Shown here one piece after another: positions 27,408 to 47,047 of a stretch of 64,000 bases of DNA (position 1 is its first letter; every line of letters begins with the position of its first letter). This DNA is from Bacilli bacterium (GTDB taxonomy: Bacteria > Bacillota_I > Bacilli_A > RFN20 > CAG-826): positions 6,108 to 70,107 of the forward strand of contig JBGUMU010000031.1 of the NCBI GenBank assembly GCA_045116995.1, written 5' to 3'. Under the pieces are notes generated by a model that did not search any database, was not told where the DNA came from, and worked only from the letters and a program-made list of their open reading frames with translations. A program made the translations under genes and the position numbers.

Positions 27408-30344
27408 ATGAAATGCCCGAAGTGTGGTTCTGAGTCCCTGACTTATTTAAAAAAGAAAGATAAGTATTTTTGTGATGATTGCGAATTTGTTTTTTCTGCA
27501 CCAACTGAAAAGAAGAAAATATTCTTAAGCTACGGGCATGATGCAAACGAAACTCTAGTCAACATGATTAAAGATAGACTAAATGATAAGTTCGATGTAT
27601 GGATTGATAAGTCAAGAATCAAAGGTGGCGATGACTGGAGAAGAATGATAACTGATGGGATAGTGGCTAGTGATGGTGTTATCGCTTTCCTAAGCAAACA
27701 TTCAACAAGAGAACCAGGAGTCTGCTTAGACGAAATAAGAATTGCACTCAACATCAAATACGGAAATGTTTTGACTGTTTTATTAGAACCGCCAGAAATG
27801 GTTAAAGTCCCTTCTACTATAGGATGGGTTCAATATCTCGATTTTTCGAATTGGAAAGAAGAATATAAAAAAGAATCTTTCCATTCATATTTTGATGCGA
27901 AGATGGAAGAACTGCTATCGGCCCTTAACAACGATTGCTTTGCAAATTTTAAGGGTGAAATAGAAGAACTACAAAGGTTGCTAACTCCTAATTTATCGCA
28001 ATCAAAGGAACAGATGCTCCTTAAGAGTGATTTTTATGGACGTGAATGGCTTTTGAACATAGTGGAAGAATGGCGAAAAGATATGTCCAGCAATGTTCTA
28101 TTTATATTTGGAGGGGCGGGTTTTGGAAAGAGCTCGTTTGTTTCACACCTCGCGCACTATAAGTATGAAGTCCTTGCCACAATGTACATAGAATGGGACA
28201 AAGAAAACCAAAGATCTCCAATTGAGTTTATTAAATCTCTTGCTTTCAAAATTGCAACAAAACTGCCTGATTATAGAAAACACCTAATTGATTTGCTGAA
28301 TAACAACTCTAATATATTTTTTAACAACCATGGGATAAGTGATTTGTTTGAGGAATTAATAGCAAAGCCACTTAATAACCTTATTGATGGTGAAAGAGAT
28401 AAGGCTGTGATTTTGATTGATGGTCTGGACGAAGCTTCTGATGAATGCACAAACGAAATTGCGTTTCTGTTAGCCAGAGAACTAACAAAATTACCAAAAT
28501 GGATAGGTATTATTTTGACATCTAGACCAGATGAATATGTGAGTGTCGCGTTTAAGCAATACCAGTCAATAAATCTCAATAATTATGTAGAAGAAAACAA
28601 TGGCGATATCCAATTATTTATCAATGAAAAACTATCTTCTTTCGAAATTGATAAAGAGACAAACGATTTACTACTTAAAAAGATAAATGGCAATTTCTTA
28701 TACGCTTCTTTATTAGTTAATTCATTAATAGATAAAACCTATTCTATTGATAATCTTGAAGCCCTTCCAAATGGACTCGAGTCCTTCTATTATCAAAACT
28801 TCCGCAGGTTCTTTCCAAATCAGAAGGATTTTGTTCAGACAAGAAACGTTTTAGAAGTTGTTACTGCATTATCTGATATTCCTAGAGAATTGATAATGAG
28901 AATCCTTGATATAGATTCTTACACACTAAAAGATATTCTCAAGAAGTGTTCCTCTTTCTTGACTCCTATTTACATTAGAGAGAGCGACTTCACAGTTATT
29001 TCTTATGATTTTTGCCATAAATCCATTTCTGACTTTTTATGTTCAGAAGACAATTGCGATTACTATGTTTCTAAGGCTGACGGTCTAAATAGAATACTAA
29101 ACTATTTCGTTAAAAACATATGCTTTGACAAACAGTATTTTGACAGCAAAGAGAAATACTTTTCCAACTATATTTGCGAACACATCTGCGATTTATTTAT
29201 CGACACAGGCAAATTTGATGAATTGGTTTGTTTCCTCACTCAAAATGAAGTACCACTGTTTCCATATTTTTTAGTCCTTGAGAAGCTCCCTTCTTCCGTC
29301 AATATTAGTCCTGCATTAGAATATCTTTGGAATCATAAGTTATTCATAGAATTCTTAAGAAAAATCCAAAGTGAAGGGAGAGTAAAAACTTTAAAATTCT
29401 TTTTCCGACAATTCCTACAAACAAAAGATATTGAAGAGTTCAACGCTGATGTATTTGAAATATACATAGACACAATCCACCTCAGCGGTGATTATGAACG
29501 AGCCGTTGGGGATTATGAAAAATATCTATCACGATTTGATTTTGAAAATGTGATGAAGGATAACAGATTATCTAGGTTCTATATTAGGATGCTTCATCAT
29601 AGTATGTTTTTTAAGGATTCAAAAGGTCTTCTAGAAAAAGCAAAAGCAACACTAAATTATATTTCACAAGAATCACCCAATTATTTAGAATTACTATTTT
29701 TGATCGGAGGAAATTTGGGCTGTCTGAACGGAGATTTTGTTAATTCTAAAGAATATTTACTTACTGGCTATGATTTTGCTCTTAGAAGCGGGCTTATCAA
29801 CGAAACAAAAAGATTTGTGAGAAAACTATGTGATGTTTATCTATACGAACATGATTTCGATGCCTCTTTAAATCTAATTAACAAACACTTCAGCGCTGAC
29901 AAAATTAAAACAAGGTATGATGTTTATTTACTTGGAGTGTTATCAGAAATCTATAGATTGAGTAAGAATTACCATCAATCCATCTATACCTTAGATTTGC
30001 TAAAAAAAGAATGTGATAATAGAGGGCTATTAGGGTGGAAAGCTCACGAAATGATAGGTAGAGCGCTAACTTTAATAAATGAAGAAACATACAAAACTGA
30101 TGAGATATTAGAATGCTTGAAAGGTGCTAGAGAACTATATAATAAATTGAATCACTATTGGGGCCTCGTGAATGAAGCGATTGTTAGAGAAATAGTCAAG
30201 TTAAAAGCCAATTGTGAAATAGATAATGATTTGAGTAAAACTCTCGAAATTGCCACCAAAATGAATTACAATTATGAAGTAGGCATTATTAAGGAATTAC
30301 TTAATAAACACATTGATGAAAACTACCATTTGTTTTATTTGTAA
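27408..30344 (+). CDS. Zn-ribbon - TIR - STAND (NACHT-like) NTPase - TPR-like repeat protein (bacterial TIR-NLR / Avs-bNACHT class)
   Basis: CPKCG..x..CDDC ribbon. TIR: IFLSYGHD...DVWIDK...GDDW...VIAFLS...GVCLDEI (Glu109 at 27732-27734). Walker A FGGAGFGKSS, Walker B VILIDGLDEA. Helical-repeat C-terminal half. Confidence 0.85.
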   Translation: MKCPKCGSESLTYLKKKDKYFCDDCEFVFSAPTEKKKIFLSYGHDANETLVNMIKDRLNDKFDVWIDKSRIKGGDDWRRMITDGIVASDGVIAFLSKHSTREPGVCLDEIRIALNIKYGNVLTVLLEPPEMVKVPSTIGWVQYLDFSNWKEEYKKESFHSYFDAKMEELLSALNNDCFANFKGEIEELQRLLTPNLSQSKEQMLLKSDFYGREWLLNIVEEWRKDMSSNVLFIFGGAGFGKSSFVSHLAHYKYEVLATMYIEWDKENQRSPIEFIKSLAFKIATKLPDYRKHLIDLLNNNSNIFFNNHGISDLFEELIAKPLNNLIDGERDKAVILIDGLDEASDECTNEIAFLLARELTKLPKWIGIILTSRPDEYVSVAFKQYQSINLNNYVEENNGDIQLFINEKLSSFEIDKETNDLLLKKINGNFLYASLLVNSLIDKTYSIDNLEALPNGLESFYYQNFRRFFPNQKDFVQTRNVLEVVTALSDIPRELIMRILDIDSYTLKDILKKCSSFLTPIYIRESDFTVISYDFCHKSISDFLCSEDNCDYYVSKADGLNRILNYFVKNICFDKQYFDSKEKYFSNYICEHICDLFIDTGKFDELVCFLTQNEVPLFPYFLVLEKLPSSVNISPALEYLWNHKLFIEFLRKIQSEGRVKTLKFFFRQFLQTKDIEEFNADVFEIYIDTIHLSGDYERAVGDYEKYLSRFDFENVMKDNRLSRFYIRMLHHSMFFKDSKGLLEKAKATLNYISQESPNYLELLFLIGGNLGCLNGDFVNSKEYLLTGYDFALRSGLINETKRFVRKLCDVYLYEHDFDASLNLINKHFSADKIKTRYDVYLLGVLSEIYRLSKNYHQSIYTLDLLKKECDNRGLLGWKAHEMIGRALTLINEETYKTDEILECLKGARELYNKLNHYWGLVNEAIVREIVKLKANCEIDNDLSKTLEIATKMNYNYEVGIIKELLNKHIDENYHLFYL

Positions 30345-30347
30345 AGT

Positions 30348-31232
30348 ATGAAAGATTTCGTATTAATTGACAGTTCAAAAATTGAAAAAGCTCTTTCTGA
30401 ATCAACTAGAGAATATCTTGTTGGTGATTTAAAAAAGCCTCAAAAATTGGATTTTATTAAAACAAGCGAATTAGAAGTTGGAATATCAAATTATCATCAT
30501 AGCAAAGTTGAACCAGCGCATACTCATACTGTTTGCAATGAATATCAATACATGCTTTCCGGTTATACGGAATATTTGAATATAGATAATGGTATTATCC
30601 ATAGTTTTAAGAAAGGCGACTTCTTCTTTATCCCGAGTGGTGTGAAATATGTCCAAAGGGTTAAAGAAAACACAAGAATTCTTTTTATCAAAGTACCATC
30701 GAAAAACGATAAAGTATTGCTTCAAGAAACCCCCGAAATCCTAAAGTTCATTTCGGAAAAAATAGAAAGTCATCGTATTGATTATTTCCATGATGATAAC
30801 GCTCCAAGGGCAAACTCTATTAGGCCCGCAACAGCGGTGGCTTTAGTAAAAGACAACAAGGTCCTAATGATTAGAAGAAAAGACAATGATAAATGGTCAC
30901 TTCCTGGAGGCACACTAGAGTTTGACGAGACAATGGAAGAATGCGCCATTCGTGAAATGAAAGAAGAAACAGGATTAGATGTTTTCGACCTCCGCTTTTT
31001 TAGACTATATAATGATCCAAAAACTGTTGTTCAATATTTAGATGGCGAAGTAAGAAGAGAGTTTACTGCCGTATATTTTGCTTCATTTAAGGAATCTAAT
31101 GTTTTATTGGATTCTGAATCTAAGGAGTTTTGCTGGGTTAATGTTGATGAATTATTAAATTTAACAATGGCCAATTCTCAACGAATTAGAATTAAAGATC
31201 TTATTGAGTATTTGAGAAATGATAAAGATTAG
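30348..31232 (+). CDS. Cupin - NUDIX hydrolase fusion protein
   Basis: Cupin motif HTHTVCNEYQYMLSG (HxHx4Ex6G) plus GDFFFIPSG. Perfect Nudix box GTLEFDETMEECAIREMKEETGL (GX5EX7REUXEEXGU). Starts 3 nt after the TIR-STAND stop. Confidence 0.85.
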   Translation: MKDFVLIDSSKIEKALSESTREYLVGDLKKPQKLDFIKTSELEVGISNYHHSKVEPAHTHTVCNEYQYMLSGYTEYLNIDNGIIHSFKKGDFFFIPSGVKYVQRVKENTRILFIKVPSKNDKVLLQETPEILKFISEKIESHRIDYFHDDNAPRANSIRPATAVALVKDNKVLMIRRKDNDKWSLPGGTLEFDETMEECAIREMKEETGLDVFDLRFFRLYNDPKTVVQYLDGEVRREFTAVYFASFKESNVLLDSESKEFCWVNVDELLNLTMANSQRIRIKDLIEYLRNDKD

Positions 31233-31638
31233 TGAAGACAGATTAAAACATTCTCTTTCTGTTGCGCGCTTAATGGAAAGAAGGGCTAGAGAAAAAGGCT
31301 GGGATGACAACGTGTGCCGTGAAATGTTCATTTTGGGATATTTGCACGATATCGGTTATGAATATTCAGAAAAACAAGAAGAACATCCTCATATCGGCGG
31401 TCTTTTGATGAAAGAAAGCGGCTATAAGTATTGGAAAGAGATATATTATCACGGTGCTATTGATTGTGAGTATCATTCAGAAGAACTAGAACTATTAAAT
31501 ATATGTGACATGCTCATTAATTCAAAGGGTGAACTTGTGACTCCAGAAGAAAGATTAGCAGACATTAAAAATAGATACGGCATTGATTCAATACAATACA
31601 AAGATGCTTTGGTATTGATAAAACAATTAAATATCTAA
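31219..31638 (+). CDS. Small HD-domain phosphohydrolase (YqeK/HDIG-like minimal HD)
   Basis: H11 ... LHDIGY (H43 D44) ... HPHIGG ... H78 ... D97 spacing of the HD superfamily. Overlaps the NUDIX gene by 14 nt. Confidence 0.7.
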   Translation: MIKISEDRLKHSLSVARLMERRAREKGWDDNVCREMFILGYLHDIGYEYSEKQEEHPHIGGLLMKESGYKYWKEIYYHGAIDCEYHSEELELLNICDMLINSKGELVTPEERLADIKNRYGIDSIQYKDALVLIKQLNI

Positions 31639-31655
31639 AAGGTCCTAGTGAATCG

Positions 31656-32465
31656 TTGTTTATGTCAAAAGAAGTAGTCTATATTTTCATATCTCACTCT
31701 CACTATGACGTTGATAAAGTAAGACCAATTAGGAATTATTTGGAATCAATTGGAGCTGAGCCAATTCTTTTCTTTTTGAAAAGTAAAACCGACGCCGATG
31801 AAATAGAACAACTAATTAAAGACGAAATAGATGCTAGGGTTTGGTTTATTTATTGCAGATCATCAAATGCCGAAAGGTCGACTTGGGTCAAAAAAGAGCG
31901 AGAATACGTCAGACTCAAAGGAAAACGCAACATTACAATAGATATAGATTCATGTCTTGATTCAAATGGCAATTTAACATTAGAAACTAAGCAAAAACTA
32001 AATACCGTAGTGGGCAATTTCCGCTCACTTCAAAGACTCTATATTTCCTATTCTCATTTAGATTTTGAAGTTGCTAGAATGATTCAAGAACAACTGAGTA
32101 TATATGGCATAGACTCCTATTGTGACTTTAAAGATTTGGTTTCATCTAACTTTGAAAAAACAATCATTAGAGCAATTCAACAATCGCGGTTTTATCTCAT
32201 CCTTTTATCGGTAAGATCAATTAATTCTCTATGGGTTCGAAAAGAGTTTGAAACCGCCAAAGCTTTCAACAAAGAAATAATACCAGTGATTATGTACAGC
32301 AGTGATAGTCAACGAGAAATGATAATGAACAATGAATGGGCTTATCGTCACTTGGGATATATGCACTGCATCACGTTTGATATATCAAATAGCGAAATGA
32401 TTAATGAATCTACTAATCAACTTGTCAACGAATTGATAAGAATTGTTTTTGATGAGAATCAATGA
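31656..32465 (+). CDS. Tandem TIR-domain protein (two TIR_2-like modules)
   Basis: Module 1: VYIFISHSHYD...ILFFLK...VWFIYCRSSNAERSTWVKKEREY. Module 2: LYISYSHLDFEVA...FYLILLSVRSINSLWVRKEFETA. The likely start is ATG 31662. Confidence 0.75.
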   Translation: MFMSKEVVYIFISHSHYDVDKVRPIRNYLESIGAEPILFFLKSKTDADEIEQLIKDEIDARVWFIYCRSSNAERSTWVKKEREYVRLKGKRNITIDIDSCLDSNGNLTLETKQKLNTVVGNFRSLQRLYISYSHLDFEVARMIQEQLSIYGIDSYCDFKDLVSSNFEKTIIRAIQQSRFYLILLSVRSINSLWVRKEFETAKAFNKEIIPVIMYSSDSQREMIMNNEWAYRHLGYMHCITFDISNSEMINESTNQLVNELIRIVFDENQ

Positions 32466-32618: not shown

Positions 32619-33443
32619 ATGAAAACAATTCTTAAAAATATTTTTAAATTATTAGCTATTGCTACTATCGTTGTACAAATTGTTTTTCTATTCTTGCCTA
32701 TTGACCAAGTTTGGCAATTAGTTATATCAATATTCCCTTTCGTTTTTGAAATTGCTGCAGGCATTTTAGAAATAGATACTGTAAAGGCAGATACCGGCAA
32801 ATCAAAGAGTGGCAAAAGAGTCATTCCTCTATCTTCTTTAATTATGTCTCTAATTATGCTTTGTCTAGCCGCTGTTATTGTGGATGTATTAATCGGCACC
32901 GTTTTAATAGTTATTTCATTTGTTGTTTCATTTATCTTGTACAACAGTTATCGCAAAAGAGGATTACAAACTAAGATTAGCCCTTTGCAACGTTTCTTTA
33001 TTATACTTGCTCTCATCATTCTTCCTGTTGCCCAATATATTAAAATTTTATTAACAGTTGTAGAACAAAATAGAGGACCTGCTTCTATTATGTTTGGCAT
33101 ACAATTTGGACTATGCTTAATTGCCACGATTATTATCATTATTTGCTTAAGAAAAAAGAGCAATCCAATGAGATATTTCTTAGTATTCTTCGCTAATGGC
33201 GTTGGAACATTCCTAACATATTTTTTAAATGGTAACGGTGTCTTTGGACTAATTAATATTACTCTTTCATTTGCTGGCCCAGCTTTGTTTGCTTCTTTAG
33301 CTGCTTTAGGGACTATTGTTATCCTATACGTTGTAGGCAGATTACCAATAAATATTGTCGAAAAGTCTGACTTCTCAGAGATAGAAAATTTCGATGACGG
33401 TAATAACAATAATAATCCTTATCAAAACACATACGTTAAATAG
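32619..33443 (+). CDS. Polytopic membrane protein (about 8 TM helices), unknown function
   Basis: ATG 32619 is preceded by AGGAAG. Hydrophobic helices run throughout, with an Asn-rich hydrophilic tail. Co-directional with flanking genes. The ORF track extends it to 32535. Confidence 0.6.
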   Translation: MKTILKNIFKLLAIATIVVQIVFLFLPIDQVWQLVISIFPFVFEIAAGILEIDTVKADTGKSKSGKRVIPLSSLIMSLIMLCLAAVIVDVLIGTVLIVISFVVSFILYNSYRKRGLQTKISPLQRFFIILALIILPVAQYIKILLTVVEQNRGPASIMFGIQFGLCLIATIIIIICLRKKSNPMRYFLVFFANGVGTFLTYFLNGNGVFGLINITLSFAGPALFASLAALGTIVILYVVGRLPINIVEKSDFSEIENFDDGNNNNNPYQNTYVK

Positions 33444-33508
33444 ATATTCTATTGATATACTTATGTAAATAAGCTACTCTAAAATCAAATAGGAGACATA
33501 TTGCAATT

Positions 33509-33946
33509 ATGAGTGATTATTCTTTTCGTGATTTTTTAAATCATACGATAAATCTAAGCCCAGCGGACAAGGTTAAAATCGCAAGCGAAGCTTTGAAAAT
33601 TTACATCGATTACTTGAAATCTGATGGAATTAATGATGAAAAAATAGGTGACTCTATTTTGTGGATGACAAAATTATTTGTTTCCGCTGATGTGAGACTT
33701 GCTAAGGATGAATACGATTTCTTTAGAGCGGTCACGGGTATAGATGTCGATGCAAAGAATTTCTATGAAATTACTAACGGTGGTGCTGATCCTGAATTCA
33801 TTGAAAAAATGTTAGGCTTTATCAAAAGCATACCCGAAAAACCACGCGAAGCCGCTGTTACATACGGCATGATGGTTATGGCGTGCGACGAAAACATTGA
33901 TTTCAGTGAATCTGATTTAATCAAACGTCTTTTAGAAATCTTATAA
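33509..33946 (+). CDS. Small helical protein, TerB-like (tentative); paralog of the next gene
   Basis: KLFVSADVRLAKDEYDFF, TNGGADPEF, ACDENIDFSESDLIKRLL. The two AD-x-x-x-x-E-like segments resemble the TerB/DjlA_N pattern. RBS AGGAGA. Confidence 0.4.
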   Translation: MSDYSFRDFLNHTINLSPADKVKIASEALKIYIDYLKSDGINDEKIGDSILWMTKLFVSADVRLAKDEYDFFRAVTGIDVDAKNFYEITNGGADPEFIEKMLGFIKSIPEKPREAAVTYGMMVMACDENIDFSESDLIKRLLEIL

Positions 33947-33954
33947 AGTAATTT

Positions 33955-34395
33955 ATGACACAAGACCTTAGAGATACATTACAAGGGCTATTGGATACAG
34001 AAGACGAATTAAAAAGAAGTTATGGCAAAAAAGCCATTGATGAACTAATAGCTAATCTTAAGTTTAAGGGCCATAGAATCGACTCAATCAATGCCTTTAT
34101 TACTGACTTAGTTAAGTTACTCGTGTCCGCCGATATGACATGCCACGGAAGAGAATATGATTTTGTTATGTCTACTACTCCACTAAAAATGAACGAAAGA
34201 GAATTCTTTAAGACAACTAATGGTGGTGCAGATCCAAATTTTAAATATCATATATATCAATTCATCTCCAATTTAGATAAAGATTCTTTTGTGCGAGTAG
34301 CAAGATTTGCGTCTGCATTTTTTGCTTATGATGATGAAATAACAACAGATGAACTAATAGTGTTGGATGAAATATTAAGAGTTAATGAAGGATAG
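33955..34395 (+). CDS. Small helical protein, TerB-like (tentative); paralog of the previous gene
   Basis: KLLVSADMTCHGREYDFV, TNGGADPNF, AYDDEITTDELIVLDEIL. Same spacing of shared motifs as 33509-33946. Confidence 0.4.
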   Translation: MTQDLRDTLQGLLDTEDELKRSYGKKAIDELIANLKFKGHRIDSINAFITDLVKLLVSADMTCHGREYDFVMSTTPLKMNEREFFKTTNGGADPNFKYHIYQFISNLDKDSFVRVARFASAFFAYDDEITTDELIVLDEILRVNEG

Positions 34396-35355
34396 GTGAA
34401 CAACATGGCCAACAAAATATTAAAACACTATGATGCCTTTTATAATATGGTGCTCCTCACCACATTATTATCTAATGTCGCTGACGAGAAGTTTGATGAA
34501 GACGCAAAAAAGATTATCGAAGTCATTGGTCAAGCTTATGAATTAGAAGAAGGAATCATCAATGAATGTGAAAGGCTTATTACGGAAGAACTAGTCATTA
34601 TTCCGCGCAATAAGGATCGTATGAAATATCTCGAGAAGCAGGGCAATGAAGCAAAGAGTAATTCTTTGAATGCTATGCTATCAATTAAATGCGATGTTTT
34701 ATTTGCTATTAGTGAGCTTAACAGAAGAATTGGCTCATCCTTAGATGGTGATTGGTTTGACTATAGTAACTACCACACCTACAACCCAGAATTAAGATAT
34801 TCGCAAATTAGAAAAGCTGCGGTCACTGGCGATCTCATTGTTAATAAGATGAATGCAATGATGAATTATATCGGTCTAGGCTCCAATAAAGATGAGGCTT
34901 TTGCCATTTTATCTTTCAGACAATGTGCGGTATGGGGAGATATGTTCTCTGTTAATATGCTCAAACATATCTATCGCAGTAAAGATATTAAACAATATGA
35001 GATATATAAAGATTTAGCGACCCTAGATAAATATCTAGATAATGGTGTAACTGTCTTACCAGATAATGTCGCTACTTCTATTAAACCAGAAACCAAAGAA
35101 TTATACGCTTATATTTCATCAATCAAACAAGATATTATTCTACCTCTAGGTAAGAATAGAATCGATTACTCATTCGTGGAAGTCATTCTTTTGAAAGATC
35201 TTTCGTATCGTCAAAAGATGTTCTATATCAACAATTACTCCAATCCTAATGTCACTAACGAATGGAAAGATATTACCAACGCCAGTGCGTGTAAGGATGC
35301 ACAGATTGGTTTTAAAGTAAGGAGAGAAAACAATGATAAAGAAACCGTTTTATGA
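34396..35355 (+). CDS. Hypothetical protein with Sel1/TPR-like repeat region
   Basis: IRKAAVTGDLIVNKMNAMMNYIGLGSNKDEAFAILSFRQCAVWGDMFSVNMLKHIY fits the Sel1 repeat pattern (kAA..Gd..A...L...Y..G.G...d..eA). Start is GTG 34396 or ATG 34405. Confidence 0.45.
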   Translation: MNNMANKILKHYDAFYNMVLLTTLLSNVADEKFDEDAKKIIEVIGQAYELEEGIINECERLITEELVIIPRNKDRMKYLEKQGNEAKSNSLNAMLSIKCDVLFAISELNRRIGSSLDGDWFDYSNYHTYNPELRYSQIRKAAVTGDLIVNKMNAMMNYIGLGSNKDEAFAILSFRQCAVWGDMFSVNMLKHIYRSKDIKQYEIYKDLATLDKYLDNGVTVLPDNVATSIKPETKELYAYISSIKQDIILPLGKNRIDYSFVEVILLKDLSYRQKMFYINNYSNPNVTNEWKDITNASACKDAQIGFKVRRENNDKETVL

Positions 35356-37288
35356 TAAAACTCGCGATGATTATATCGCTTGTAAAAAAGAAAACTCCTC
35401 TCTTTATAGTTACAAAGATTTTAAAGATAAAAAACTTAAAGTCTATTTCTACGATGAACTATACAAGACTGAAGCCCAAGGCTATCCATTTAGTAGTGAC
35501 TTCGTTGATGAAAATGGCAATGCTTATGACTTTGATAGTTATGAAGAATTAAGTGATGAAGAAAAGGCAAAATGTCGCTTAAGATATTTCTATTTACCTT
35601 TCTATCACGAAATGTATGTTGGTACCACCGGTAGTGGTAAAACAACAGGCTGTTTAGAACCTCAAATTAGGGCTATTGGTTCACAAAAGAATAAACCTAA
35701 TATCTTTGTGACTGACCCTAAAGGTGAACTATTTGATCATCACGCTACATTCTTAAAGAAGAAAGGTTACAACGTCTTTATTCTTAATTTCAAAGATCCA
35801 TCTATCTCCAATTCATGGAATCCATTTGATGAATTATATGATAAGCAAGTATCTTTGATTGACCTCGGTAAAGACTATCAGCTATGCCACGGTTTAGTTC
35901 CTGATGGTGTCAGAATGTTTGATGACAAGACTAAATATCAAAGAACATATTACATGCTTGATGGTATTGCTTTCGCAACTTTGAGTTCGTTAAGCCAATA
36001 TGTAGAAAATCAAAGGTTTACCATTAAGTCAGAAGTCTCATCTTTGATTAACCAAATATCAAGCACAATGATTCCACCTATTCCAGGGGATAAAGATCCT
36101 ATCTGGAGAGATGGTTCTAGAGATTTATTAAGTGGCATCATCTCCGGCTTATTAGAAGAAGCTGTTAAACCTAATACAACATTCACTAAAAAGATGATGA
36201 CATTAAAAACAGTTAATGATGTCTATCTTAAGATTAATGATGGTCAAAACAACAGTCATGAATTTGATATAGTCCATGAGTTCTTTGAAGAAAAATCAAC
36301 AGAAACACTTAGTAAAGTTACAACAGTATTGGATTCCGCTGATAAGACTAGAGCGTCTTTCTTAAGTTGCTTTAGAGCAGCGGTCGCTGATTGGATGCAT
36401 GGACACATACTTAAATTAACGGCCGAAACCACAATTGATTTAGATGACTCTAAAAATCCATTCGCTGTATTCTTTGTCACTAGAGATTATGAAAGCAGTG
36501 ATGATTTAGTAGCGTCCTTATTCATTAACTGGGTCTACACACAGGTATTAAAGAAAGTTGAAAGAATTAGAAATAATAATCCATCCGCTAAAGTAAGAGA
36601 TACACACTTCTTATTAGATGAATTTGCTAATATTCCACAAATCCATGACTTTAGAAGAAAGATTGCAACTGCAAGAAGTAGAAACATTTGGTTCCATATC
36701 ATCATCCAAAACTACTCACAGTTGAATGCTATTTATGGTGATGAAGTTGCTTCAACTATTTGGGATAACTGTAATTCACAAGTATTCCTAGGATGTCAAT
36801 CTAGGGAAACAAAAGAAAAGTTCTCTAAAGAATGCGGCATGATGACCGTTAATGGAGAAGATGCGGGTGGCAGTGAAGTTGAAACCATACCAGTAGTTCG
36901 TATCTCCGACTTAGACAAGATTAAGCCAGGCACCATGTATATTAAGCGCATATACACTAATGTCATTAAAGGCGGTTATATTAGAAGCTATCAAGCTACA
37001 AGATTCTTTGAAGATATGTATGGCACTGATCCATTACATACTCTTGTTCCATTTAATAATACCGATATTAATGAGCCATCAAGAACATTCTATGAAATGT
37101 GCCCACGATGGTATAAAAAGCCTAAAAAGCCCGCCCCAGTAGTGGAACGATTTGAAGAAGAAGACGAAGAGGAAGATGACTCTAGTGGAGATGCTGTTGA
37201 TCAATTCTTCCAGAAATTGAAAGAAGAACAGCAAAGAGAAAATCCTGAATTATATGCTCCACTTAAGAAGAAAGGAGATAAGAGATAA
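35333..37288 (+). CDS. Soluble VirD4/TraG-family (type IV coupling-protein-like, FtsK/HerA-superfamily) ATPase with acidic C-terminal tail
   Basis: Walker A VGTTGSGKTTG, FVTDPKGEL, NSWNPFD, Walker B HFLLDEFANIPQI, RSRNIWFHIIIQNYSQL. No N-terminal TM helices. Tail EEEDEEEDDSSGD. RBS AAGGAGAG. Confidence 0.8.
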   Translation: MIKKPFYDKTRDDYIACKKENSSLYSYKDFKDKKLKVYFYDELYKTEAQGYPFSSDFVDENGNAYDFDSYEELSDEEKAKCRLRYFYLPFYHEMYVGTTGSGKTTGCLEPQIRAIGSQKNKPNIFVTDPKGELFDHHATFLKKKGYNVFILNFKDPSISNSWNPFDELYDKQVSLIDLGKDYQLCHGLVPDGVRMFDDKTKYQRTYYMLDGIAFATLSSLSQYVENQRFTIKSEVSSLINQISSTMIPPIPGDKDPIWRDGSRDLLSGIISGLLEEAVKPNTTFTKKMMTLKTVNDVYLKINDGQNNSHEFDIVHEFFEEKSTETLSKVTTVLDSADKTRASFLSCFRAAVADWMHGHILKLTAETTIDLDDSKNPFAVFFVTRDYESSDDLVASLFINWVYTQVLKKVERIRNNNPSAKVRDTHFLLDEFANIPQIHDFRRKIATARSRNIWFHIIIQNYSQLNAIYGDEVASTIWDNCNSQVFLGCQSRETKEKFSKECGMMTVNGEDAGGSEVETIPVVRISDLDKIKPGTMYIKRIYTNVIKGGYIRSYQATRFFEDMYGTDPLHTLVPFNNTDINEPSRTFYEMCPRWYKKPKKPAPVVERFEEEDEEEDDSSGDAVDQFFQKLKEEQQRENPELYAPLKKKGDKR

Positions 37289-37824
37289 TGGAAGAAAAGA
37301 AATTATCCGAAAAGCTTATTGAAAACGGCATCTTTGTTATCACAAGCAATATTAACGAAGAAACCACTCATAGTTTGATATTCTCGCTTTTAGATTTCAG
37401 TGCATCTAATCCTGAAAAAGAGATTAAACTATACATCTCTTCAGGCAGTGTTGACTATCTTAATGTTTTTGCGATTTATGATGTTGTTAAATCATTACCT
37501 AATCCCGTATCCACTTATTCAATAGGTGGTGTATCTGATATGTCACTAGTCTTCCCATGCTTAGGAAACAAAGGAAAAAGATATGCCTTAGAAAACACAT
37601 TATTCTATTTCTCTGAAGTAGTGGGCGTTCTTGGCGAAGGCCAACAAACTGATATTGAAATATTAGCGAAAGATACAATGCGTACAAGAATTGCTTTTGA
37701 ATCAATATTAGCGGAAGCAACAGGAAAGAAAGTCGAAGATATTCATAAAGATTTAGTTAATAGTATTAAATTGACTGCAAAAGAGGCTAAAGAATATGGA
37801 TTGATTGATGAGGTGATGAGATAA
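37288..37824 (+). CDS. ClpP-fold protein lacking the catalytic triad (ClpR-like pseudo-protease)
   Basis: Collinear with ClpP (NPEKEIKLYISSGS..IYD....P.VSTYSIGG...KGKRYAL.N...AKEAKEYGLIDEV). The Ser, His and Asp positions read D84 (GGVSDMS), F108 (LFYFSE) and S (LVNSIKLT). Confidence 0.8.
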   Translation: MEEKKLSEKLIENGIFVITSNINEETTHSLIFSLLDFSASNPEKEIKLYISSGSVDYLNVFAIYDVVKSLPNPVSTYSIGGVSDMSLVFPCLGNKGKRYALENTLFYFSEVVGVLGEGQQTDIEILAKDTMRTRIAFESILAEATGKKVEDIHKDLVNSIKLTAKEAKEYGLIDEVMR

Positions 37825-37825
37825 T

Positions 37826-38347
37826 ATGGCACTTATTAAGAATTCTAGAATCGTTTCACTAAATGGTGAAGTAAACGAAATATCAGCATTAGAAGTCATT
37901 GTTCAAATGCTAGATCTTGACGCTAAAGATAATAAAGAACCAATCCACCTCTACATTAATAGTCCAGGTGGAAGCATCATTCATGGTTTAGCTATCTATG
38001 ACACAATCAACAACATTGAAGCCCCAGTATATACATATTGCTATGGTCTTGCAGCTTCTATGGGCGCGTTTCTATTATGCTGTGGTCAAAAAGGTCACAG
38101 ATACGCTCTTCCTAATTCAAGAATATTAATTCACCAACCTTTGATTTCCGGGCAAGCAAGGCTCGCTACCGAATCGAAGATTAGAGAACAAGCAGATGAT
38201 ATGAAAAAGATGAGAACAAAATTAGAAAGTATCATTGCAGAGCAATGCGATAAGAGTCTTGAAACAGTTCATAAAGACTGTGAGAGAGATAACTGGATGA
38301 GCGCTAAAGAAGCCAAAGAATACGGCCTCATAGATCAGGTATTATAA
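37826..38347 (+). CDS. ClpP-family serine protease, catalytic triad intact, N-terminal axial-loop region absent
   Basis: HLYINSPGGS, GLAASMGAFLL (Ser78), ILIHQP (His103), ERDNWMSAKEAKEYGLID (Asp155). It starts about 19 residues later than mature E. coli ClpP in my by-eye alignment. Confidence 0.85.
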   Translation: MALIKNSRIVSLNGEVNEISALEVIVQMLDLDAKDNKEPIHLYINSPGGSIIHGLAIYDTINNIEAPVYTYCYGLAASMGAFLLCCGQKGHRYALPNSRILIHQPLISGQARLATESKIREQADDMKKMRTKLESIIAEQCDKSLETVHKDCERDNWMSAKEAKEYGLIDQVL

Positions 38348-38368
38348 AAGTATCAAATACATATGAGA

Positions 38369-38398
38369 AAGCAGGAGTTAATCCTCCTGCTTCTTTTT
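38369..38398. terminator. Hairpin terminator between convergent genes (overlaps the 3' end of the minus-strand CDS)
   Basis: AAGCAGGAG-ttaatc-CTCCTGCTT 9-bp stem followed by CTTTTT on the plus strand. Confidence 0.65.
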
Positions 38399-41353
38399 AT
38401 TCTTTTTCTCTTCTTTTTGCTTCTTTGCATCATAACAAGCTTTGCGCTTGTCAAATTTCTTTATGGCTTTAATTGTTCTACCATATCTCCAATTAGTTAA
38501 GCCTTTTTTACGATGCATCTTGATTGTCTTGTTATCGAAATCTTCAATGTCGATTTTAGAAGCACTAATTCTAATAATGGAGTAAGAATCAATATGCTCT
38601 TCACCATAAGTCTTAACATAGTCTTCCTTAGTTTCACCATTATTAAGAGTGTGGCAGAGTTCAATGCCGTGAGAAGCTAATGCTATTTCAAAATACTTGT
38701 TAACTTCATTTTCATCCTTTTTGCCAGTACCCCATCTATTAATCTCTATTAATTCAGCATCTAATTCACGTGTTATTTTTGCAAGCGAATCCAAATTCAC
38801 ATTATTAATATATGCGATAATTGTGTCGTTTATTTCAATCTCTGTGAAATTCTTCTTTTCATCTTCTGCTGGCACGCTTTTGACGACATAATCATTGATG
38901 TCAAAGAATAACAATCTCACCCTGTTGTTATCTGATAATTGTTTCAAAACTTTAGAGACGGTGTCGATGTCATTGCTAAAGACAAGTTTCTTAGCTTTTT
39001 CTTTTCTTTCATCGTCATTCTTAAAAATGTCATAAATTTTACCCAAGCCTTCGTTTGTGGTCATGCAAACGTGATTAGTCTTAGTTGGATTTTTAGTTTT
39101 CATACTTTTTTGATTAAAATCACTTTTCTTGAGCTGGCCATATCTATTAATGCCATATTCAGTTGCTAACCACCTGTTGTGTTCCATATATGCTAATAGT
39201 CTAACTTTTTGATTGAATGGATGTTCATCCGTATCAAGCTCTGGATAATCTTCTTTTGCAACTTCAAAAATTGTTTCGACCACTTTACTATCAACAGGGA
39301 TGTTATTCTTGTCTACGATTAGACCTTTTCTATTCAATTTATAGTCCAAAATGTTCAATTTTGATTTAAGGGAATAGGCAGTAGAAGTGTTAGCAAGGAC
39401 TTCTTTTTTGTCAACGAAAAGCCATGAAAGGTTTTCTCTAACTGGTGTCCATTCAGATATTTGGCCTTCCCAATAAGCACCGTATGCTGCTTTGCCGTTA
39501 TCCACTAATCGCTTGTAATCGGTATCAATAAAGTGTGCCATATTTGTGTCTTCGCCAAAGATAATAATTGGTATGAGTGGTTTATTGTTTTTATCCATAT
39601 GTTCAATACTTAAAGAACTCTTTTGATCAAAGACAAATTTGTTTGCATCCATTAATCCTTTAGCAATTAATTCATCACCTATACGCACATAAATTCGAGC
39701 ATTCTTCAACTCATCTTCTTTAAATGTTTTGATTAATATTTCACGTAAGTTAAAGGCAATACGAATATCTTGGTTTGTAGTAGCGGCAGAAACAATAAAT
39801 AGTTCCAAGCCATCTTTGACAAAGCGATTTTTATCACGTTCGTTCTCGGCTTTGTTTCTACTTTCTAATAGTTCTTCAAAATGCTTTTTTAAAGACTCGT
39901 ATGCTGTTAAGTCTACGCCATCACACTTTGCGTCAACTGTATATAGGAGCGGTTTATCAAAATAGTCTTCCTCAGTAGTGACATTATCTGTGTATTCGTT
40001 TTTTAATTGATCAACTATTTTGTTTGAATTTAAATCATAGATGAAATAGTGCATCTTATGTGTGTTGTCTTCTGAGTTTTGATAAGCAAAAGTCATCTTC
40101 TTAAAGATTGGTCTATTGATATTACCAAAACCAAAGAAGGAAACGTTTAAACCATCAGATTCTTTTTGCTTGCCATTAACCAAAGCGCATAAAGGATTAC
40201 TTAAAATAAACTCAGAAGAAACCATATCGTATTGTGAAAGTGTGTTCACTATATGGAATGTCTGTCCTGAGAAATTGTTAACTATATCGATATCATGATC
40301 CTGATAGGTGATAAACACTTTGAAATTATTTATGACCTCTAAATCTTTTTCTTTCTTTGCGTCACTAATCTTGGTGTAGTCTCTGGCGCCTTCGTTTGAT
40401 TCGTTTCTTAAACTAAAATAATCTTTGAATTCCTTTTGCAAACATTTATTTTCCAAAATACCTGCAGTGAAGTTAGATGCTAAAGTAATAGAGGCATCAT
40501 CATTATCAAATAAACCGTAGATGGTTACTTTACGATTACGGTACCATCTCCAAAGGAACCATCTCTTTTGATAATTTCTATTAAAGAACTTCTTAAATAG
40601 GTAAGCACATAAGTTTTTACTAAAACCTTCGCTTCTTACATCGAAACCTTCGTTAATGAGCATATCTCTATATTCAGTGCCTTCCTGTGTTTTTAAAGAG
40701 GCCTTTGTGACATACATAACGACAGCATGCTTTTTGCTTTTTAAGGCATGTCCTAATCTTTTAGTAGCATTAGCGACTTTCGCATCAGAGAAAATGTAAT
40801 AAAGTTCTGTTTTAGGCAATAAGAGTTTAAAGAAGTTAGAAGCCTTCGCGAAGTTATTCTTGAAGAAGAACAAAATAACAGAAATAGAAGTAGTGGCCAA
40901 ACTGAATAATGATGTTATGTAAAACATCACACCAAATGTTTGATGCCATCCAGTGATATTCTCTCCAGTGAAGAATGCTCCGATAGCGTCTCTGTCGAAT
41001 GTTAAAGTCATCATTCTTACTGCACCTGTAACCGCATCGAAAAAAATGGCTCCGCCATCACTGAATGATACGTTCTTATTTGTCACTATTTGTGTGTATG
41101 AATTATAGACACTATATGAGCTTTGAGGATTACTGCTTTGAGCAACTGCTTGTTCAACGCCATTGTATGATTTAACATCAATAGCGTTTAAATTAACGGC
41201 TAGCATCATAAGGAAACAAAGTAAGAATGCTCCCCCGATATATAAAAGGACATTGCCTACATATTTGTATTTAGCGTATCGAAAAATAAAAAGAGCCGCC
41301 AAAATAAGCATCGTTATCGGTGCGATGAAAACCATTGCTATTATCATGTTCAT
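38378..41353 (-). CDS. Large membrane protein: N-terminal TM region, central Rossmann-like modules, RyR-like domain, unknown C-terminal domain
   Basis: 991-aa ORF. TM helices lie in the first ~170 aa. FFGFGNINRPIF is a glycine-rich Rossmann-like segment. YMEHNRWLATEYG...NHVCMTTNEGL resembles the bacterial RyR-domain core (EHxRW...H.xxxxxxxL). Confidence 0.5.
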   Translation of the reverse strand: MNMIIAMVFIAPITMLILAALFIFRYAKYKYVGNVLLYIGGAFLLCFLMMLAVNLNAIDVKSYNGVEQAVAQSSNPQSSYSVYNSYTQIVTNKNVSFSDGGAIFFDAVTGAVRMMTLTFDRDAIGAFFTGENITGWHQTFGVMFYITSLFSLATTSISVILFFFKNNFAKASNFFKLLLPKTELYYIFSDAKVANATKRLGHALKSKKHAVVMYVTKASLKTQEGTEYRDMLINEGFDVRSEGFSKNLCAYLFKKFFNRNYQKRWFLWRWYRNRKVTIYGLFDNDDASITLASNFTAGILENKCLQKEFKDYFSLRNESNEGARDYTKISDAKKEKDLEVINNFKVFITYQDHDIDIVNNFSGQTFHIVNTLSQYDMVSSEFILSNPLCALVNGKQKESDGLNVSFFGFGNINRPIFKKMTFAYQNSEDNTHKMHYFIYDLNSNKIVDQLKNEYTDNVTTEEDYFDKPLLYTVDAKCDGVDLTAYESLKKHFEELLESRNKAENERDKNRFVKDGLELFIVSAATTNQDIRIAFNLREILIKTFKEDELKNARIYVRIGDELIAKGLMDANKFVFDQKSSLSIEHMDKNNKPLIPIIIFGEDTNMAHFIDTDYKRLVDNGKAAYGAYWEGQISEWTPVRENLSWLFVDKKEVLANTSTAYSLKSKLNILDYKLNRKGLIVDKNNIPVDSKVVETIFEVAKEDYPELDTDEHPFNQKVRLLAYMEHNRWLATEYGINRYGQLKKSDFNQKSMKTKNPTKTNHVCMTTNEGLGKIYDIFKNDDERKEKAKKLVFSNDIDTVSKVLKQLSDNNRVRLLFFDINDYVVKSVPAEDEKKNFTEIEINDTIIAYINNVNLDSLAKITRELDAELIEINRWGTGKKDENEVNKYFEIALASHGIELCHTLNNGETKEDYVKTYGEEHIDSYSIIRISASKIDIEDFDNKTIKMHRKKGLTNWRYGRTIKAIKKFDKRKACYDAKKQKEEKKNKKKQED

Positions 41354-41453
41354 AGTAGATTCCTCGGATAAATTATATATTACATCTTACTATCTAGTCA
41401 TTACGTAAATTTGTGCACGTGTGTTTATGGTTGTATGCTAAAATACAATTGAT

Positions 41454-42029
41454 ATGAATCGTGAAACAAAAATAAAAATAATCGCTCGCAGTTTTGATCT
41501 TGTTGAAGACATTGTGTGTAAATGTTTTAAGACAACAGAAGAAGCTACCAGAGCTGCAATTAAAACAGAGGTTTTAGAGCGTTATGAAAAAATCGGTGAT
41601 GACGTTGTTGAAAAGACCTCTCTTATGGAAGCATATAAAAAGCTAGAAGCAATGGATTATTATGAACTGGCAGAATTGGTTGAACTATTAGGTGGTGTTG
41701 AGGATTCTGATGAAGAAAAAAGCCTAAGAGAAAAGTTTTATTTCACTGAATATGGCGACAAGTTTGTACTATACGACGATAAAGGCGAACCAATACGTTA
41801 CATAATGAAATTAAGATTCGTTCATAAAGAAAGAGACTTTTGCATGGCTGTTAGCTTTGCCAATCTCGAGATTGATGATTGCTGTCCTGATTGTGACTTC
41901 TTTGAATTTATCATGGGAGAACATCTTGAGGATGATAAAATGATTGAAGTGACAGATGAAGATTTGATTCAGGAATTAAGTGATGTAGTAGCGGATATTT
42001 ACAACAATAGTGATGATGACGAGGATTAA
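41454..42029 (+). CDS. Acidic hypothetical protein with DUF1292-like C-terminal half
   Basis: FVLYDDKGEPIRYIMKLRFVHKERDFCMAV...FFEF...DDKMIEVTDEDLIQELSDVV resembles the DUF1292 pattern (DEeGne..feil..f...gk.Y.vl...e.e.e.v). Poly-acidic tail. Confidence 0.4.
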   Translation: MNRETKIKIIARSFDLVEDIVCKCFKTTEEATRAAIKTEVLERYEKIGDDVVEKTSLMEAYKKLEAMDYYELAELVELLGGVEDSDEEKSLREKFYFTEYGDKFVLYDDKGEPIRYIMKLRFVHKERDFCMAVSFANLEIDDCCPDCDFFEFIMGEHLEDDKMIEVTDEDLIQELSDVVADIYNNSDDDED

Positions 42030-42032
42030 AAT

Positions 42033-42317
42033 ATGAATAAATATATACCTTCCCCAATAGATTTAAGTAAAGTTGAACTTCCAAATGATATTTCTTCTTT
42101 AGTGGAATTAATTGCTAAAAACGTCCACGAAGTCTGGGCGGACGCTAGAGTTAAAGAAGGATGGACGTACGGAGAACATAAAGATTCCATCAAAAAAACA
42201 ACTCCTTGTTTAGTGCCTTATGAAGAACTACCAGAAGAAGAAAAAGAGTACGATAGAAAAACTGCTCTTGAAACAATAAAACTAATTATCAAATTGGGAT
42301 ATAAAATTGAAAAATAG
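42033..42317 (+). CDS. Stand-alone RyR (ryanodine-receptor repeat) domain protein
   Basis: LIAKNVHEVWADARVKEGWTYGEHKDSIKKTTPCLVPYEELPEEEKEYDRKTALETIKLI is a near-textbook bacterial RyR-domain sequence. Confidence 0.8.
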   Translation: MNKYIPSPIDLSKVELPNDISSLVELIAKNVHEVWADARVKEGWTYGEHKDSIKKTTPCLVPYEELPEEEKEYDRKTALETIKLIIKLGYKIEK

Positions 42318-44713: not shown

Positions 44714-44714
44714 T

Positions 44715-45563
44715 ATGCCAAACGCTACTGTTAAACTAAACGAAAAATTTGCCTTCAAAAAAGAGTTTACCACCTATGTTAGAGAAACCATTTATACTTA
44801 CCAAGATGGAAATATTTATGTTATTGATTGCAGTGATGGTTTGGTGACACAAGTTATCAATGTCGATTTCATCAAAAATCCAATCAGATGTTATTACTTC
44901 GATAGATATGTCTATGTTTATAACTACGAAGATATCGCTTATTACGATGTTGTCAATCGCACAGTTGGCACTAAAAAGATGCGCCACAGCAGTAGCAACA
45001 TTGTTTACTCAAGCTTTTCAGAATTTAAACACACCTTAATCATTTATAGCAACTTAACTGTGGACATTTATAATGACAAACTTGATTTAGTTAAAGTTAC
45101 TACCATTGATAAAGATCTATACAACGATTTTGAGCAAGCTATTGTTTTAGCTCATGATTTTGACAACATTGCTGGATTTATAACCATCCAAAAGAGTGGT
45201 GCTGTATTCATTAAAATGCTTGCTAATAACCAAGTCGGACTTTGGGCTATTATGGATGGCTATAATGGTGATAAGTCCGCAATATATCAACCATATCCGG
45301 GATATTTGTACTATAAAACAAAGAGTGGCGTCATGCGCTATAGACTTGGACAACAAAATAGTGCCACTCTGTTGCCTGGTGTTATAGAAGTTCTTAATCC
45401 ATCATACAGATTTTTTGCATTCCTAGTAATTGGCAACCAACTGGTCATCAATAATCACATTTATAAAACTATTAAATTGCCAGTAAAACTATTCGGACAG
45501 CATAATCAAGAATTAATAGTAGTTGATGCGGATAATGTGTTGCACAATTTAACCGGAGAATAA
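44715..45563 (+). CDS. Beta-rich hypothetical protein, possible 7-bladed beta-propeller; translationally coupled partner of the DUF4062-STAND
   Basis: ATG lies 1 nt after the upstream TAA. About seven recurrences, roughly 40 aa apart, of hydrophobic beta-hairpin-like segments (IYVIDCSDGLV, VYVYNYEDIAYYDV, LIIYSNLTVDIYN, GFITIQKSGAVFI, YLYYKTKSGVMRY, FLVIGNQLVIN, ELIVVDADNVLHN). Confidence 0.35.
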   Translation: MPNATVKLNEKFAFKKEFTTYVRETIYTYQDGNIYVIDCSDGLVTQVINVDFIKNPIRCYYFDRYVYVYNYEDIAYYDVVNRTVGTKKMRHSSSNIVYSSFSEFKHTLIIYSNLTVDIYNDKLDLVKVTTIDKDLYNDFEQAIVLAHDFDNIAGFITIQKSGAVFIKMLANNQVGLWAIMDGYNGDKSAIYQPYPGYLYYKTKSGVMRYRLGQQNSATLLPGVIEVLNPSYRFFAFLVIGNQLVINNHIYKTIKLPVKLFGQHNQELIVVDADNVLHNLTGE

Positions 45564-47002: not shown

Positions 47003-47047
47003 AAAAAGAATGTGAGTTTTAATTCGTTTTGATATAGTCTTCTATAT

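Follow-up and report, generated by a model that had tools for sequence, protein, structure and literature searches.

Coupling proteins such as those of the CD1115 family (NF045973), TrwB of R388, and Cag5 contain a P-loop nucleotide-binding domain and an all-alpha domain. ClpP/ClpR proteases, including the cyanobacterial and plastid ClpP3/R and the mycobacterial ClpP1P2, consist of a dead and an active ClpP-fold subunit and are partnered by the AAA+ proteins ClpX or ClpC. In ClpP, roughly 20 residues at the start of the mature chain form the N-terminal axial loops, which control access to the pore and make contact with the AAA+ partner. Small TerB-fold proteins are found in Shango, which combines a TerB protein (SngA) with an ATPase (SngB) and a helicase (SngC), and in Ter clusters. 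The present study concerns a locus at which relatives of these parts lie together. It is located on a 64,000-nucleotide (nt) stretch of contig JBGUMU010000031.1 from a Bacilli bacterium (hereafter, the window; all coordinates are positions within it). An earlier annotation of the window, made from its sequence alone (hereafter, the original prediction), proposed that seven co-directional open reading frames (ORFs) on the + strand at 32619–38347 constitute an undescribed system. All seven are present in the ORF list at these coordinates (G1 to G7; Table 1) and encode a membrane protein (G1), two TerB-like paralogs (G2 and G3), a helical protein (G4), a VirD4/TraG-family ATPase (G5), and a ClpR/ClpP pair (G6 and G7).

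The domains of the above coupling proteins are shared by G5, and an acidic, phenylalanine-containing C-terminal tail is common to G5 and its conjugative relatives of the CD1115 family. However, G5 is only 25–32% identical to members of that family, lacks transmembrane (TM) helices, has an N-terminal region and a partner (G4) of its own, and belongs to a clade near which no conjugation genes are found. G6 and G7 likewise form a dead and active ClpP-fold pair. In contrast to known ClpP/ClpR proteases, both subunits lack approximately 20 N-terminal gate residues, the docking-pocket positions are polar, and, in the genome, the pair is partnered by a VirD4-like ATPase, RyR-like membrane proteins, or both, and not by clpX or clpC. 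Small TerB-like proteins are present, which recall the TerB-fold protein of Shango and Ter clusters; however, the window system contains neither a helicase nor TerC, TerD, or TerZ genes, and its TerB-like proteins form a 140-amino-acid (aa) family of their own. We rejected identity with Shango or Ter because the seven proteins gave no PADLOC Shango match at E≤0.1 and no helicase is present.

ATPases of the FtsK/HerA/VirD4 superfamily have precedents in anti-phage systems, namely, MADS mad8, Sir2-HerA, and some variants of Menshen NsnA. The closest item in the literature searched is the mention of a T4SS-DNA_transf domain in three NsnA proteins of Menshen (PMC12065111). However, none of the partner genes of MADS, Sir2-HerA, or Menshen are present here, and those systems have no ClpP, RyR, or TerB components. 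A search of PADLOC-DB v2.0 (2023) with eight proteins of the window system yielded no modelled system and a single match, that of the ATPase to mad8 (2.8e-9), which reflects similarity at the level of the P-loop only. No description of the system was found in PADLOC, Pfam, NCBIfam, or the open-access full-text literature searched on VirD4, TraG, ClpP, RyR, TerB, and defence. The gene cluster is apparently undescribed within the resources compared, in agreement with what had been claimed for this combination of parts, and no described system resembles this combination of the ATPase with gate-less ClpR/ClpP, RyR-like, and TerB-like proteins. We consider that these genes may form one modular system that serves in conflict with, or defence against, DNA elements that invade the cell, a reading to which we assign a probability of roughly 0.5.

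The ATPase and its helical partner

Relatives of G5 were collected by scanning one genome per GTDB species, which yielded 79 loci (designated by L numbers), and 71 distinct loci were counted for linkage. ORFs were called in all loci and clustered by all-against-all BLASTP, with a cross-check by hidden Markov models. G5 matched Pfam T4SS-DNA_transf (3.4e-45), TrwB_AAD_bind (1.3e-25), and TraG-D_C. The VirD4/TraG motifs named in the original prediction (GSGKT, DPKGE, NPFD, LLDEFAN, and IIQNYSQL) were all found, and Walker A, Walker B, and other nucleoside triphosphatase motifs were invariant in an alignment of 12 homologs. No segment of 19 residues in G5 reached a Kyte-Doolittle value of 1.6, our criterion for a TM segment, and G5 thus has no hydrophobic segment. 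The same result was obtained for 74 of the 76 clade members (G5 included), whereas the conjugative relatives have two N-terminal TM helices. The TM-less ATPases share a conserved, clade-specific N-terminal region of 90 aa. The lack of an N-terminal anchor had been predicted for G5, and these hydropathy profiles show that the ATPase descends from membrane-anchored conjugative proteins and has shed the anchor; we expect it to be a cytoplasmic, hexamer-type enzyme.

The best NCBIfam match of G5 was the equivalog conju_CD1115 (NF045973), at 244.9 bits against a cut-off of 250. The ATPases of L009 (230.3 bits) and L021 (219 bits) also fell below 250, as did all three tested. Sequence matches of the ATPase family in the PDB were restricted to TrwB and Cag5, both marginal in the profile search. 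TM-less ATPases with 39–85% identity to G5 were encoded at approximately 70 of the 79 scanned loci, and the clade was detected in at least 70 species-level Bacillota genomes of gut and rumen origin. At five of the 79 loci, the ATPases (28–30% identity) had two N-terminal TM helices and were accompanied by membrane proteins typical of Gram-positive transfer regions.

No member of the TM-less clade was present in 72,556 plasmids. The best matches among these plasmids were annotated as CD1115 family proteins and were 25–32% identical over residues 92–553 only. One such relative, on Clostridioides difficile pCd5_2, is 729 aa long, has N-terminal TM helices, and adjoins a pLS20_p028-family conjugation protein. 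Phage and viral collections contained no close relative of the ATPase, and a phage-borne origin was rejected on this basis. The flanks of the related loci contained no transfer genes; the neighbours were G4, Clp, RyR-like, housekeeping, and defence genes. Similarly, Pfam revealed no conjugation genes in the window, which was scanned from approximately 22 to 63 kb together with a few upstream genes. G5 therefore has the domains that define a coupling protein and lacks two other defining features, the membrane anchor and the transfer-gene context. The TM-less clade, the identity to conjugative proteins of 32% at most, and the non-transfer flanks support the proposal that the ATPase lies outside any conjugative element. 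The ATPase represents a clade distinct from conjugative coupling proteins.

The predicted acidic tail is present at approximately residues 600–651 of G5 and includes a Phe-Phe pair (DQFFQKL). Most of the TM-less ATPases (L007–L085) have acidic tails with Phe or Trp, such as FDDFDF, DDFDFPI, and DDWGVFDD. We searched for a Clp-specific docking motif in this tail and rejected it, since the tail is common to conjugative relatives and to loci without Clp genes. A general role in binding partners is more likely for the tail than one in docking to Clp, and the tail may be a conserved element inherited from coupling proteins. L013 (46–5702) encodes two copies of the TM-less ATPase, in the order ATPase-ClpR-ClpP-G4-ATPase.

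G4 was located directly upstream of the ATPase gene at 67 of the 71 loci, and G4 and the ATPase are the invariant core of the system. The two genes overlap by 23 nt in the window, and their translational coupling is shown at the level of sequence. The AlphaFold2 model of G4 (predicted local distance difference test [pLDDT] score, 88.5) is all-helical. Nearly all of the top 20 Foldseek matches were Sel1-repeat proteins; however, these matches were weak (E 0.04–0.5; probability up to 0.99; TM-scores 0.25–0.55 over approximately 130 residues), and the resemblance to Sel1-like repeats (SLR) was limited to the central segment. G4 had no Pfam Sel1 match and did not belong to any family in Pfam, NCBIfam, or PADLOC. 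On the basis of this model, G4 is predicted to have a Sel1-like repeat segment without being a true member of the SLR family; the Sel1-like label given to it originally is thus retained for the fold, partially and weakly, and not for the sequence family. Bona fide Sel1-repeat proteins flank the system in L047 (445 aa) and L100 (1168 aa).

The ClpR/ClpP pair

G6 and G7 both matched Pfam CLP_protease (5.5e-35 and 8.5e-64, respectively). All three triad residues of G6 are replaced (Ser by Asp, with His and Asp also lost), while S78, His, and Asp of G7 align with the ClpP triad. Alignments to PDB ClpP chains start at approximately residue 22 for G6 and 25 for G7, and approximately 20 N-terminal residues are missing. 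These features were not peculiar to the window: a lost triad and short N terminus were also observed in 20 ClpR-like sequences from related loci, and the Ser-His-Asp triad was retained in 25 of 25 partner ClpP sequences, all of which were N-terminally short. Only 0–10 residues precede the position of E. coli R22 in almost all of the ClpR/ClpP pairs. In essentially every pair, the gene without the triad comes before the one that retains it. The Pfam and PDB alignments agree with the original description of one dead and one active ClpP-fold protein without axial loops. Such a pair would imply a mixed barrel or mixed rings. The positions matching F49, Y60, and F82 of E. coli ClpP, which presumably form part of the docking pocket for the LGF/IGF motifs of ClpX and ClpA, are polar in both types of subunit. 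This would fit a non-canonical ClpP partner and proves nothing.

The original prediction suggested counting the TM-less VirD4 homologs that are flanked by ClpP/ClpR genes. ClpR and ClpP were both encoded within 9 kb of the ATPase at 24 of the 71 loci, including 12 of the 35 whose flanks extend for 7 kb or more on each side, so that the linkage is not unique to this genome. Four arrangements were observed. The pair lies downstream of the ATPase in the clade of the window and in L102; upstream, as ClpR-ClpP-G4-ATPase with gaps of 3–14 nt, in L009 and L013; in a divergent operon with the large protein c3 in Christensenellales; and within a single operon, G4-ATPase-c4-ClpR-ClpP-c3, in L030 and L047. 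Since the linkage has been retained through rearrangement across Bacilli and Clostridia, which is classical evidence, we consider it to reflect a functional tie. Moreover, recurrence of the G4-ATPase pair and of the ClpR/ClpP linkage across dozens of species goes beyond chance.

A reciprocal search of metagenome contigs with a narrow ClpR alignment yielded 13 loci. At four of them, the pair was flanked by c3 on one side and, on the opposite side, by G4, either alone or together with the ATPase. Stand-alone truncated ClpR-ClpP pairs were found on contigs L090–L094, L096, L088, and L098. The pairs in L091 and L096 occupy a syntenic site, followed by a protein of approximately 250 aa and a gene of the uridine-kinase family, and that in L091 also adjoins an EcoRI-type methylase and a DUF262/HNH-like gene. 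Other stand-alone pairs adjoin trkH/trkA or a uridine-kinase-family gene. These lone pairs could be a stand-alone module or the sole ClpP of the organisms carrying them.

RyR-like and TerB-like proteins and the extent of the conserved unit

The membrane protein G1 had been proposed as the membrane component of the system. It was a singleton in the clustering, jackhmmer detected no homolog at any of the approximately 100 related loci, and we rejected it. The convergent gene beyond the hairpin that follows G7 encodes a large protein, BIG, with predicted TM segments at residues 1–28, 30–61, and 142–164, and homologs of BIG were found at all seven loci of the clade of the window. Large proteins of the BIG, c4, and c3 families (approximately 800–990, 730, and 850 aa) were encoded at 33 of the 71 loci. 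The three families have in common N-terminal TM helices, an invariant GxG...D signature of the Rossmann type, and an RyR-like motif, EHxRW, in the C-terminal part, and were related to each other by hhalign with probabilities of 99.3 (BIG and c4), 96.5 (BIG and c3), and 99.0 (c3 and c4); c3 and the small RyR domain scored 95.9. The invariant residues of BIG are G408, G410, D440, and E724-H725-x-R727-W728. Its relation to RyR (PF02026) is transitive only, through the c4 and c3 families. BIG matched no family in Pfam, NCBIfam, or PADLOC, and a profile search of the PDB gave only uninformative designed Rossmann proteins. The predicted membrane protein BIG, rather than G1, is the real membrane component of the system.

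Two further genes follow BIG on the opposite strand. The first encodes an acidic protein, D1, and ends 3 nt upstream of a gene for a small RyR-domain protein in the same operon. The small RyR protein was readily assigned by Pfam (PF02026; 2.1e-36), and its homologs accompany the system in L001, L004, L007, L011, L050, L071, L100, and L102. D1 had no family assignment in Pfam or NCBIfam, and jackhmmer searches of the fetched loci detected its homologs near the system in L007, L011, L100, L004, and L071. Neither Pfam nor NCBIfam contains a family that covers G4, BIG, c3, c4, or D1.

G2 and G3 are paralogs with 27% identity. An exhaustive profile search found 213 representatives of their family, almost all of which are stand-alone proteins of approximately 140 aa. 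G2 and G3 themselves had no Pfam match at E≤0.1; 15 of 69 family members matched Pfam TerB (PF05099), at best with 7e-5, and the family profile matched PDB 2h5n, which we take to be TerB-like, with an E-value of 9.5e-6. The AlphaFold2 model of G3 (pLDDT 94.8) is all-helical, with 2h5n as its top, weak Foldseek match in the PDB. It appears reasonable to regard G2 and G3 as TerB-like proteins and not as gathering-threshold members of TerB. Their earlier designation as TerB-like thus holds for the family profile and the fold, and not for a direct Pfam match. Homologs accompany the system in L001, L004, L011, L050, L071, L100, and L102. At Christensenellales-type loci (L017, L018, L024, L028, L029, L047, L053, and L082), a YbjN-like protein of approximately 160 aa (Pfam YbjN 9e-4) adjoins G4 at the place occupied by the TerB-like genes in the clade of the window.

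The boundaries originally drawn at 32619 and 38347 were not those of the conserved unit. Since G1 is not shared and BIG, D1, and the small RyR gene recur at related loci, the conserved unit in the window is 33509–42317 (approximately 9 kb). The clade of the window comprises the window, L007, L001, L004, L050, L071, and L011 (ATPase identity 45–85%), and, where the contig extends far enough, each locus has G4, the ATPase, ClpR, ClpP, BIG, the small RyR protein, and at least one TerB-like protein. In L102, genes for G4, the ATPase, ClpR, ClpP, RyR, and a TerB-like protein lie beside uvrC and mutS2. L100 and L101 have G4, the ATPase, TerB-like, c3, RyR, and a Sel1/TPR protein, without Clp genes.

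The junctions from G2 onwards are tight. The gap between G1 and G2 is 65 nt, and those between G2 and G3 and between G6 and G7 are 8 and 1 nt, respectively; G5 and G6 overlap by 1 nt (TAATG). Apart from the 65-nt gap, for which no value had been given, these figures and the G4/G5 overlap were as predicted, and the claim that G3 and G4 abut is doubtful. The two genes abut only if GTG at 34396 is the start of G4. A GAAGGA ribosome-binding site is better spaced for an ATG at 34405, and the protein has 316 aa in public gene calls; this ATG is therefore the more likely start, which would leave a gap of 9 nt. A longer ORF for G1 begins at 32535, and its ATG at 32619 is preceded by an AGGAAG ribosome-binding site. 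The strong hairpin proposed after G7 was detected by the terminator scan at 38369–38392, with a stem of 9 bp containing five G-C pairs followed by a T-run. It overlaps the stop codon of BIG at 38378 and can therefore terminate in both directions; it probably ends both of the convergent ClpP and BIG transcripts.

Table 1. Positions of the ORFs and other features discussed, within the window
Feature	Positions	Strand	Basis
G1, polytopic membrane protein, 274 aa	32619–33443	+	~6 hydrophobic segments
G2, TerB-like paralog 1, 145 aa	33509–33946	+	Family profile
G3, TerB-like paralog 2, 146 aa	33955–34395	+	Family profile, AlphaFold2 model
G4, all-helical ~310-aa partner with Sel1-like repeat segment	34396–35355	+	Fold matches
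G5, soluble VirD4/TraG-family P-loop ATPase, 651 aa	35333–37288	+	Pfam
G6, ClpR	37288–37824	+	Pfam CLP_protease, triad lost
G7, ClpP	37826–38347	+	Pfam CLP_protease, triad kept
Hairpin with T-run, likely two-way terminator	38369–38392	.	Terminator scan and sequence
BIG, membrane-anchored Rossmann and RyR-like protein, 991 aa	38378–41353	-	TM segments, hhalign
D1, acidic protein, 191 aa	41454–42029	+	jackhmmer homologs at related loci
Small stand-alone RyR-domain protein, 94 aa	42033–42317	+	Pfam RyR 2.1e-36
Reverse transcriptase-nitrilase, 1009 aa	21997–25026	+	PADLOC DRT RT_UG5-nitrilase 8.9e-115
TIR-STAND, 978 aa	27408–30344	+	First gene of upstream array

Possible roles and alternative explanations

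If these genes form the single modular defence system that we favour, the ATPase and the G4 adaptor would recognise and engage an invader-derived substrate, either DNA itself or a protein that is bound to DNA or accompanies it; this step is modelled on coupling proteins with relaxase-DNA complexes. The gate-less ClpR/ClpP chamber would be the proteolytic output. RyR-like and TerB-like proteins may position the machine at the membrane or control it there, and the membrane proteins may replace the lost anchor or have a regulatory role. The ATPase and the protease may communicate through direct docking and threading or through indirect activation.

Several findings weigh against this reading. Clp genes are missing from the vicinity of approximately two thirds of the ATPase loci, and eight of the 13 ClpR/ClpP loci from the reciprocal search have no ATPase within the available 2–12 kb and lie in ordinary chromosomal contexts. 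The protease and ATPase modules are thus separable and ClpR/ClpP is not exclusive to the ATPase; since both modules occur without the other, their coupling is facultative. Among the 35 loci with full flanks, nine have only G4 and the ATPase, and a third to half of the ATPase loci show no accessory module nearby. The acidic, Phe-containing tail is also present in TM-anchored conjugative relatives and at Clp-less loci. Housekeeping genes (rsmI, gltD/glutamate synthase, lon, engB, uvrC, and mutS2) form the flanks of many loci, and the defence context is not universal. Most of the related sequences are from metagenome-assembled genomes, and the linkage counts cover local flanks.

A more specific possibility, which we regard as conceivable but doubtful, is that the VirD4-like RecA-fold hexamer docks directly on ClpR/ClpP and threads substrates into it, with G4 as the adaptor, thereby replacing ClpX, ClpA, or ClpC. 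The minimal ClpR-ClpP-G4-ATPase operons of L009 and L013, the overlap of the ATPase stop with the ClpR start in the window, and the survival of the Clp linkage through rearrangement are consistent with such a motor, and the missing axial loops and polar pocket positions argue against the usual AAA+ partners. However, the pores of VirD4-type proteins are generally treated as channels for DNA, the ATPase yielded no Clp-specific motif, and at many loci ClpR/ClpP is co-transcribed with RyR-like membrane proteins and not with the ATPase. Direct threading remains plausible; however, it is weakened because the modules are separable, as the Clp-less ATPase loci and the ATPase-less pairs demonstrate. 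An AAA_2 protein of the ClpB/Cdc48 type (approximately 770 aa) was found beside the system in L011 (2094–4388, −), L100 (4497–6812, −), and L101. It occurs in two species, in which the copies are 57% identical and have a conserved neighbour of approximately 180 aa, and has no homolog in the window. This protein might be an alternative AAA+ partner, or might belong to a neighbouring Dodola-like system.

It is also conceivable, though doubtful, that separate small systems are co-localised in defence hotspots: G4 with the ATPase, ClpR/ClpP with RyR-like membrane proteins, and TerB-like proteins with the small RyR protein and D1. Defence genes cluster in general, and the loci with G4 and the ATPase alone fit this explanation, as do seven of the 35 loci at which the core is accompanied by RyR-like membrane proteins without Clp, the lone ClpR/ClpP pairs (eight of 13), and L100, where TerB, RyR, and c3 are present without Clp genes. 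However, adjacency of these modules is far more frequent than is usual for defence systems that are unrelated. The seven loci of the clade of the window keep the same set despite ATPase identities of 45–85%, L030 and L047 hold G4, the ATPase, c4, ClpR, ClpP, and c3 in one tight co-directional operon, and L102 keeps the set in a housekeeping neighbourhood.

A physiological role outside defence appears unlikely. The system may have functions in membrane-associated quality control of proteins, in regulated proteolysis linked to the sensing of ions or nucleotides by the RyR, Rossmann, or TerB proteins, or in processing during the uptake or export of DNA, and the housekeeping flanks, the stand-alone ClpR/ClpP pairs at the syntenic site beside a uridine-kinase-family gene, and the absence of any PADLOC result beyond weak similarity to mad8 are in line with such functions. 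On the other hand, the distribution is patchy, the module content varies, and no example was found in the well-studied Bacillota of the plasmid and phage collections searched. Furthermore, the window, L004, L071, and L047 each have the system within a defence island, and its ancestry lies in a mobile-element protein. The flanks of L004 contain restriction-modification, HicB, radical-SAM, and STAND genes, and the neighbours in L071 and L047 include TIR-STAND proteins.

The most elaborate version, recipient-side immunity, is quite improbable in our view. The VirD4-like hexamer and Sel1-like adaptor would thread DNA-pilot proteins into a ClpR/ClpP chamber that is gate-less and held at the membrane by the RyR-like and TerB-like proteins, and candidates for the captured pilots would be relaxases and phage terminal or ejection proteins. 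We rejected a decayed integrative conjugative element remnant, with a coupling-protein gene beside clpP genes by chance, as extremely improbable: although the conjugative CD1115 family is the closest one that has a name, the ATPase gene has an uninterrupted reading frame, the nucleoside triphosphatase motifs are invariant, a TM-less clade with its own conserved partner G4 extends over at least 70 species, the flanks contain no transfer genes, and identity to conjugative proteins is below 32%.

If the cluster works as one machine, an ATPase of the conjugation coupling type has been co-opted for a chromosomal role that is probably defensive. The motor or regulator of a ClpP may then lie outside the AAA+ family, which would change the textbook view of how Clp is fed, and bacterial RyR domains and the new 140-aa TerB-like family would gain their first functional context. 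Should recipient-side immunity prove correct, it would provide the first non-AAA+ ClpP motor (RecA-fold, FtsK/HerA/VirD4 superfamily) and a new anti-plasmid and anti-phage principle. The carriers are widespread gut and rumen Firmicutes, which are poorly covered by experimental defence screens.

Defence island and neighbouring genes in the window

The region from approximately 22 to 51 kb of the window is a defence island according to Pfam and PADLOC, and the DRT, TIR, STAND, and SIR2 genes around the system bear out the island setting described originally. Its left edge is the UG5-nitrilase of the DRT type, a known defence reverse transcriptase. Directly upstream of the system, a tight co-directional array at 27408–32465 (+) encodes TIR-STAND, cupin-Nudix (PADLOC PDC-S07), HD, and ThsB-like double-TIR proteins. 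Homologs of TIR-STAND (25–29% identity) are located within the system or next to it in L071 and L047, and homologs of the double-TIR protein were found in L071 (50% identical) and L046 (45%); the related entries are at 13820–16663 and 2378–3205 in L071 and at 5151–8969 in L047. The TIR array and the system may be functionally linked, for example, through TIR-made nucleotide signals sensed by Rossmann/RyR proteins, or may be merely co-localised.

The right half of the island (42449–50785, +) encodes, in order, a DUF4062-STAND protein (754 aa), a 282-aa unknown protein, a TIR-methyltransferase (434 aa) with a weak mad2 match, a class I/II aminotransferase, a 333-aa unknown protein, and a SIR2_2 protein. 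A homolog of the DUF4062-STAND protein (24% identical) adjoins the system in L004. The island ends on the right at an aspartate aminotransferase gene (PF12897; 50841–52043). A gene of the same family directly follows the RyR gene in L001 (10224–11435), and in the window it is located 8.5 kb further on, which suggests that the site is a chromosomal hotspot receiving extra inserted defence genes. Beyond the island, an ORF at 54554–56194 (+) joins an HTH_3 domain N-terminally to a complete phosphoglucomutase/phosphomannomutase; this fusion may be a product of the upstream start selected by the ORF caller.

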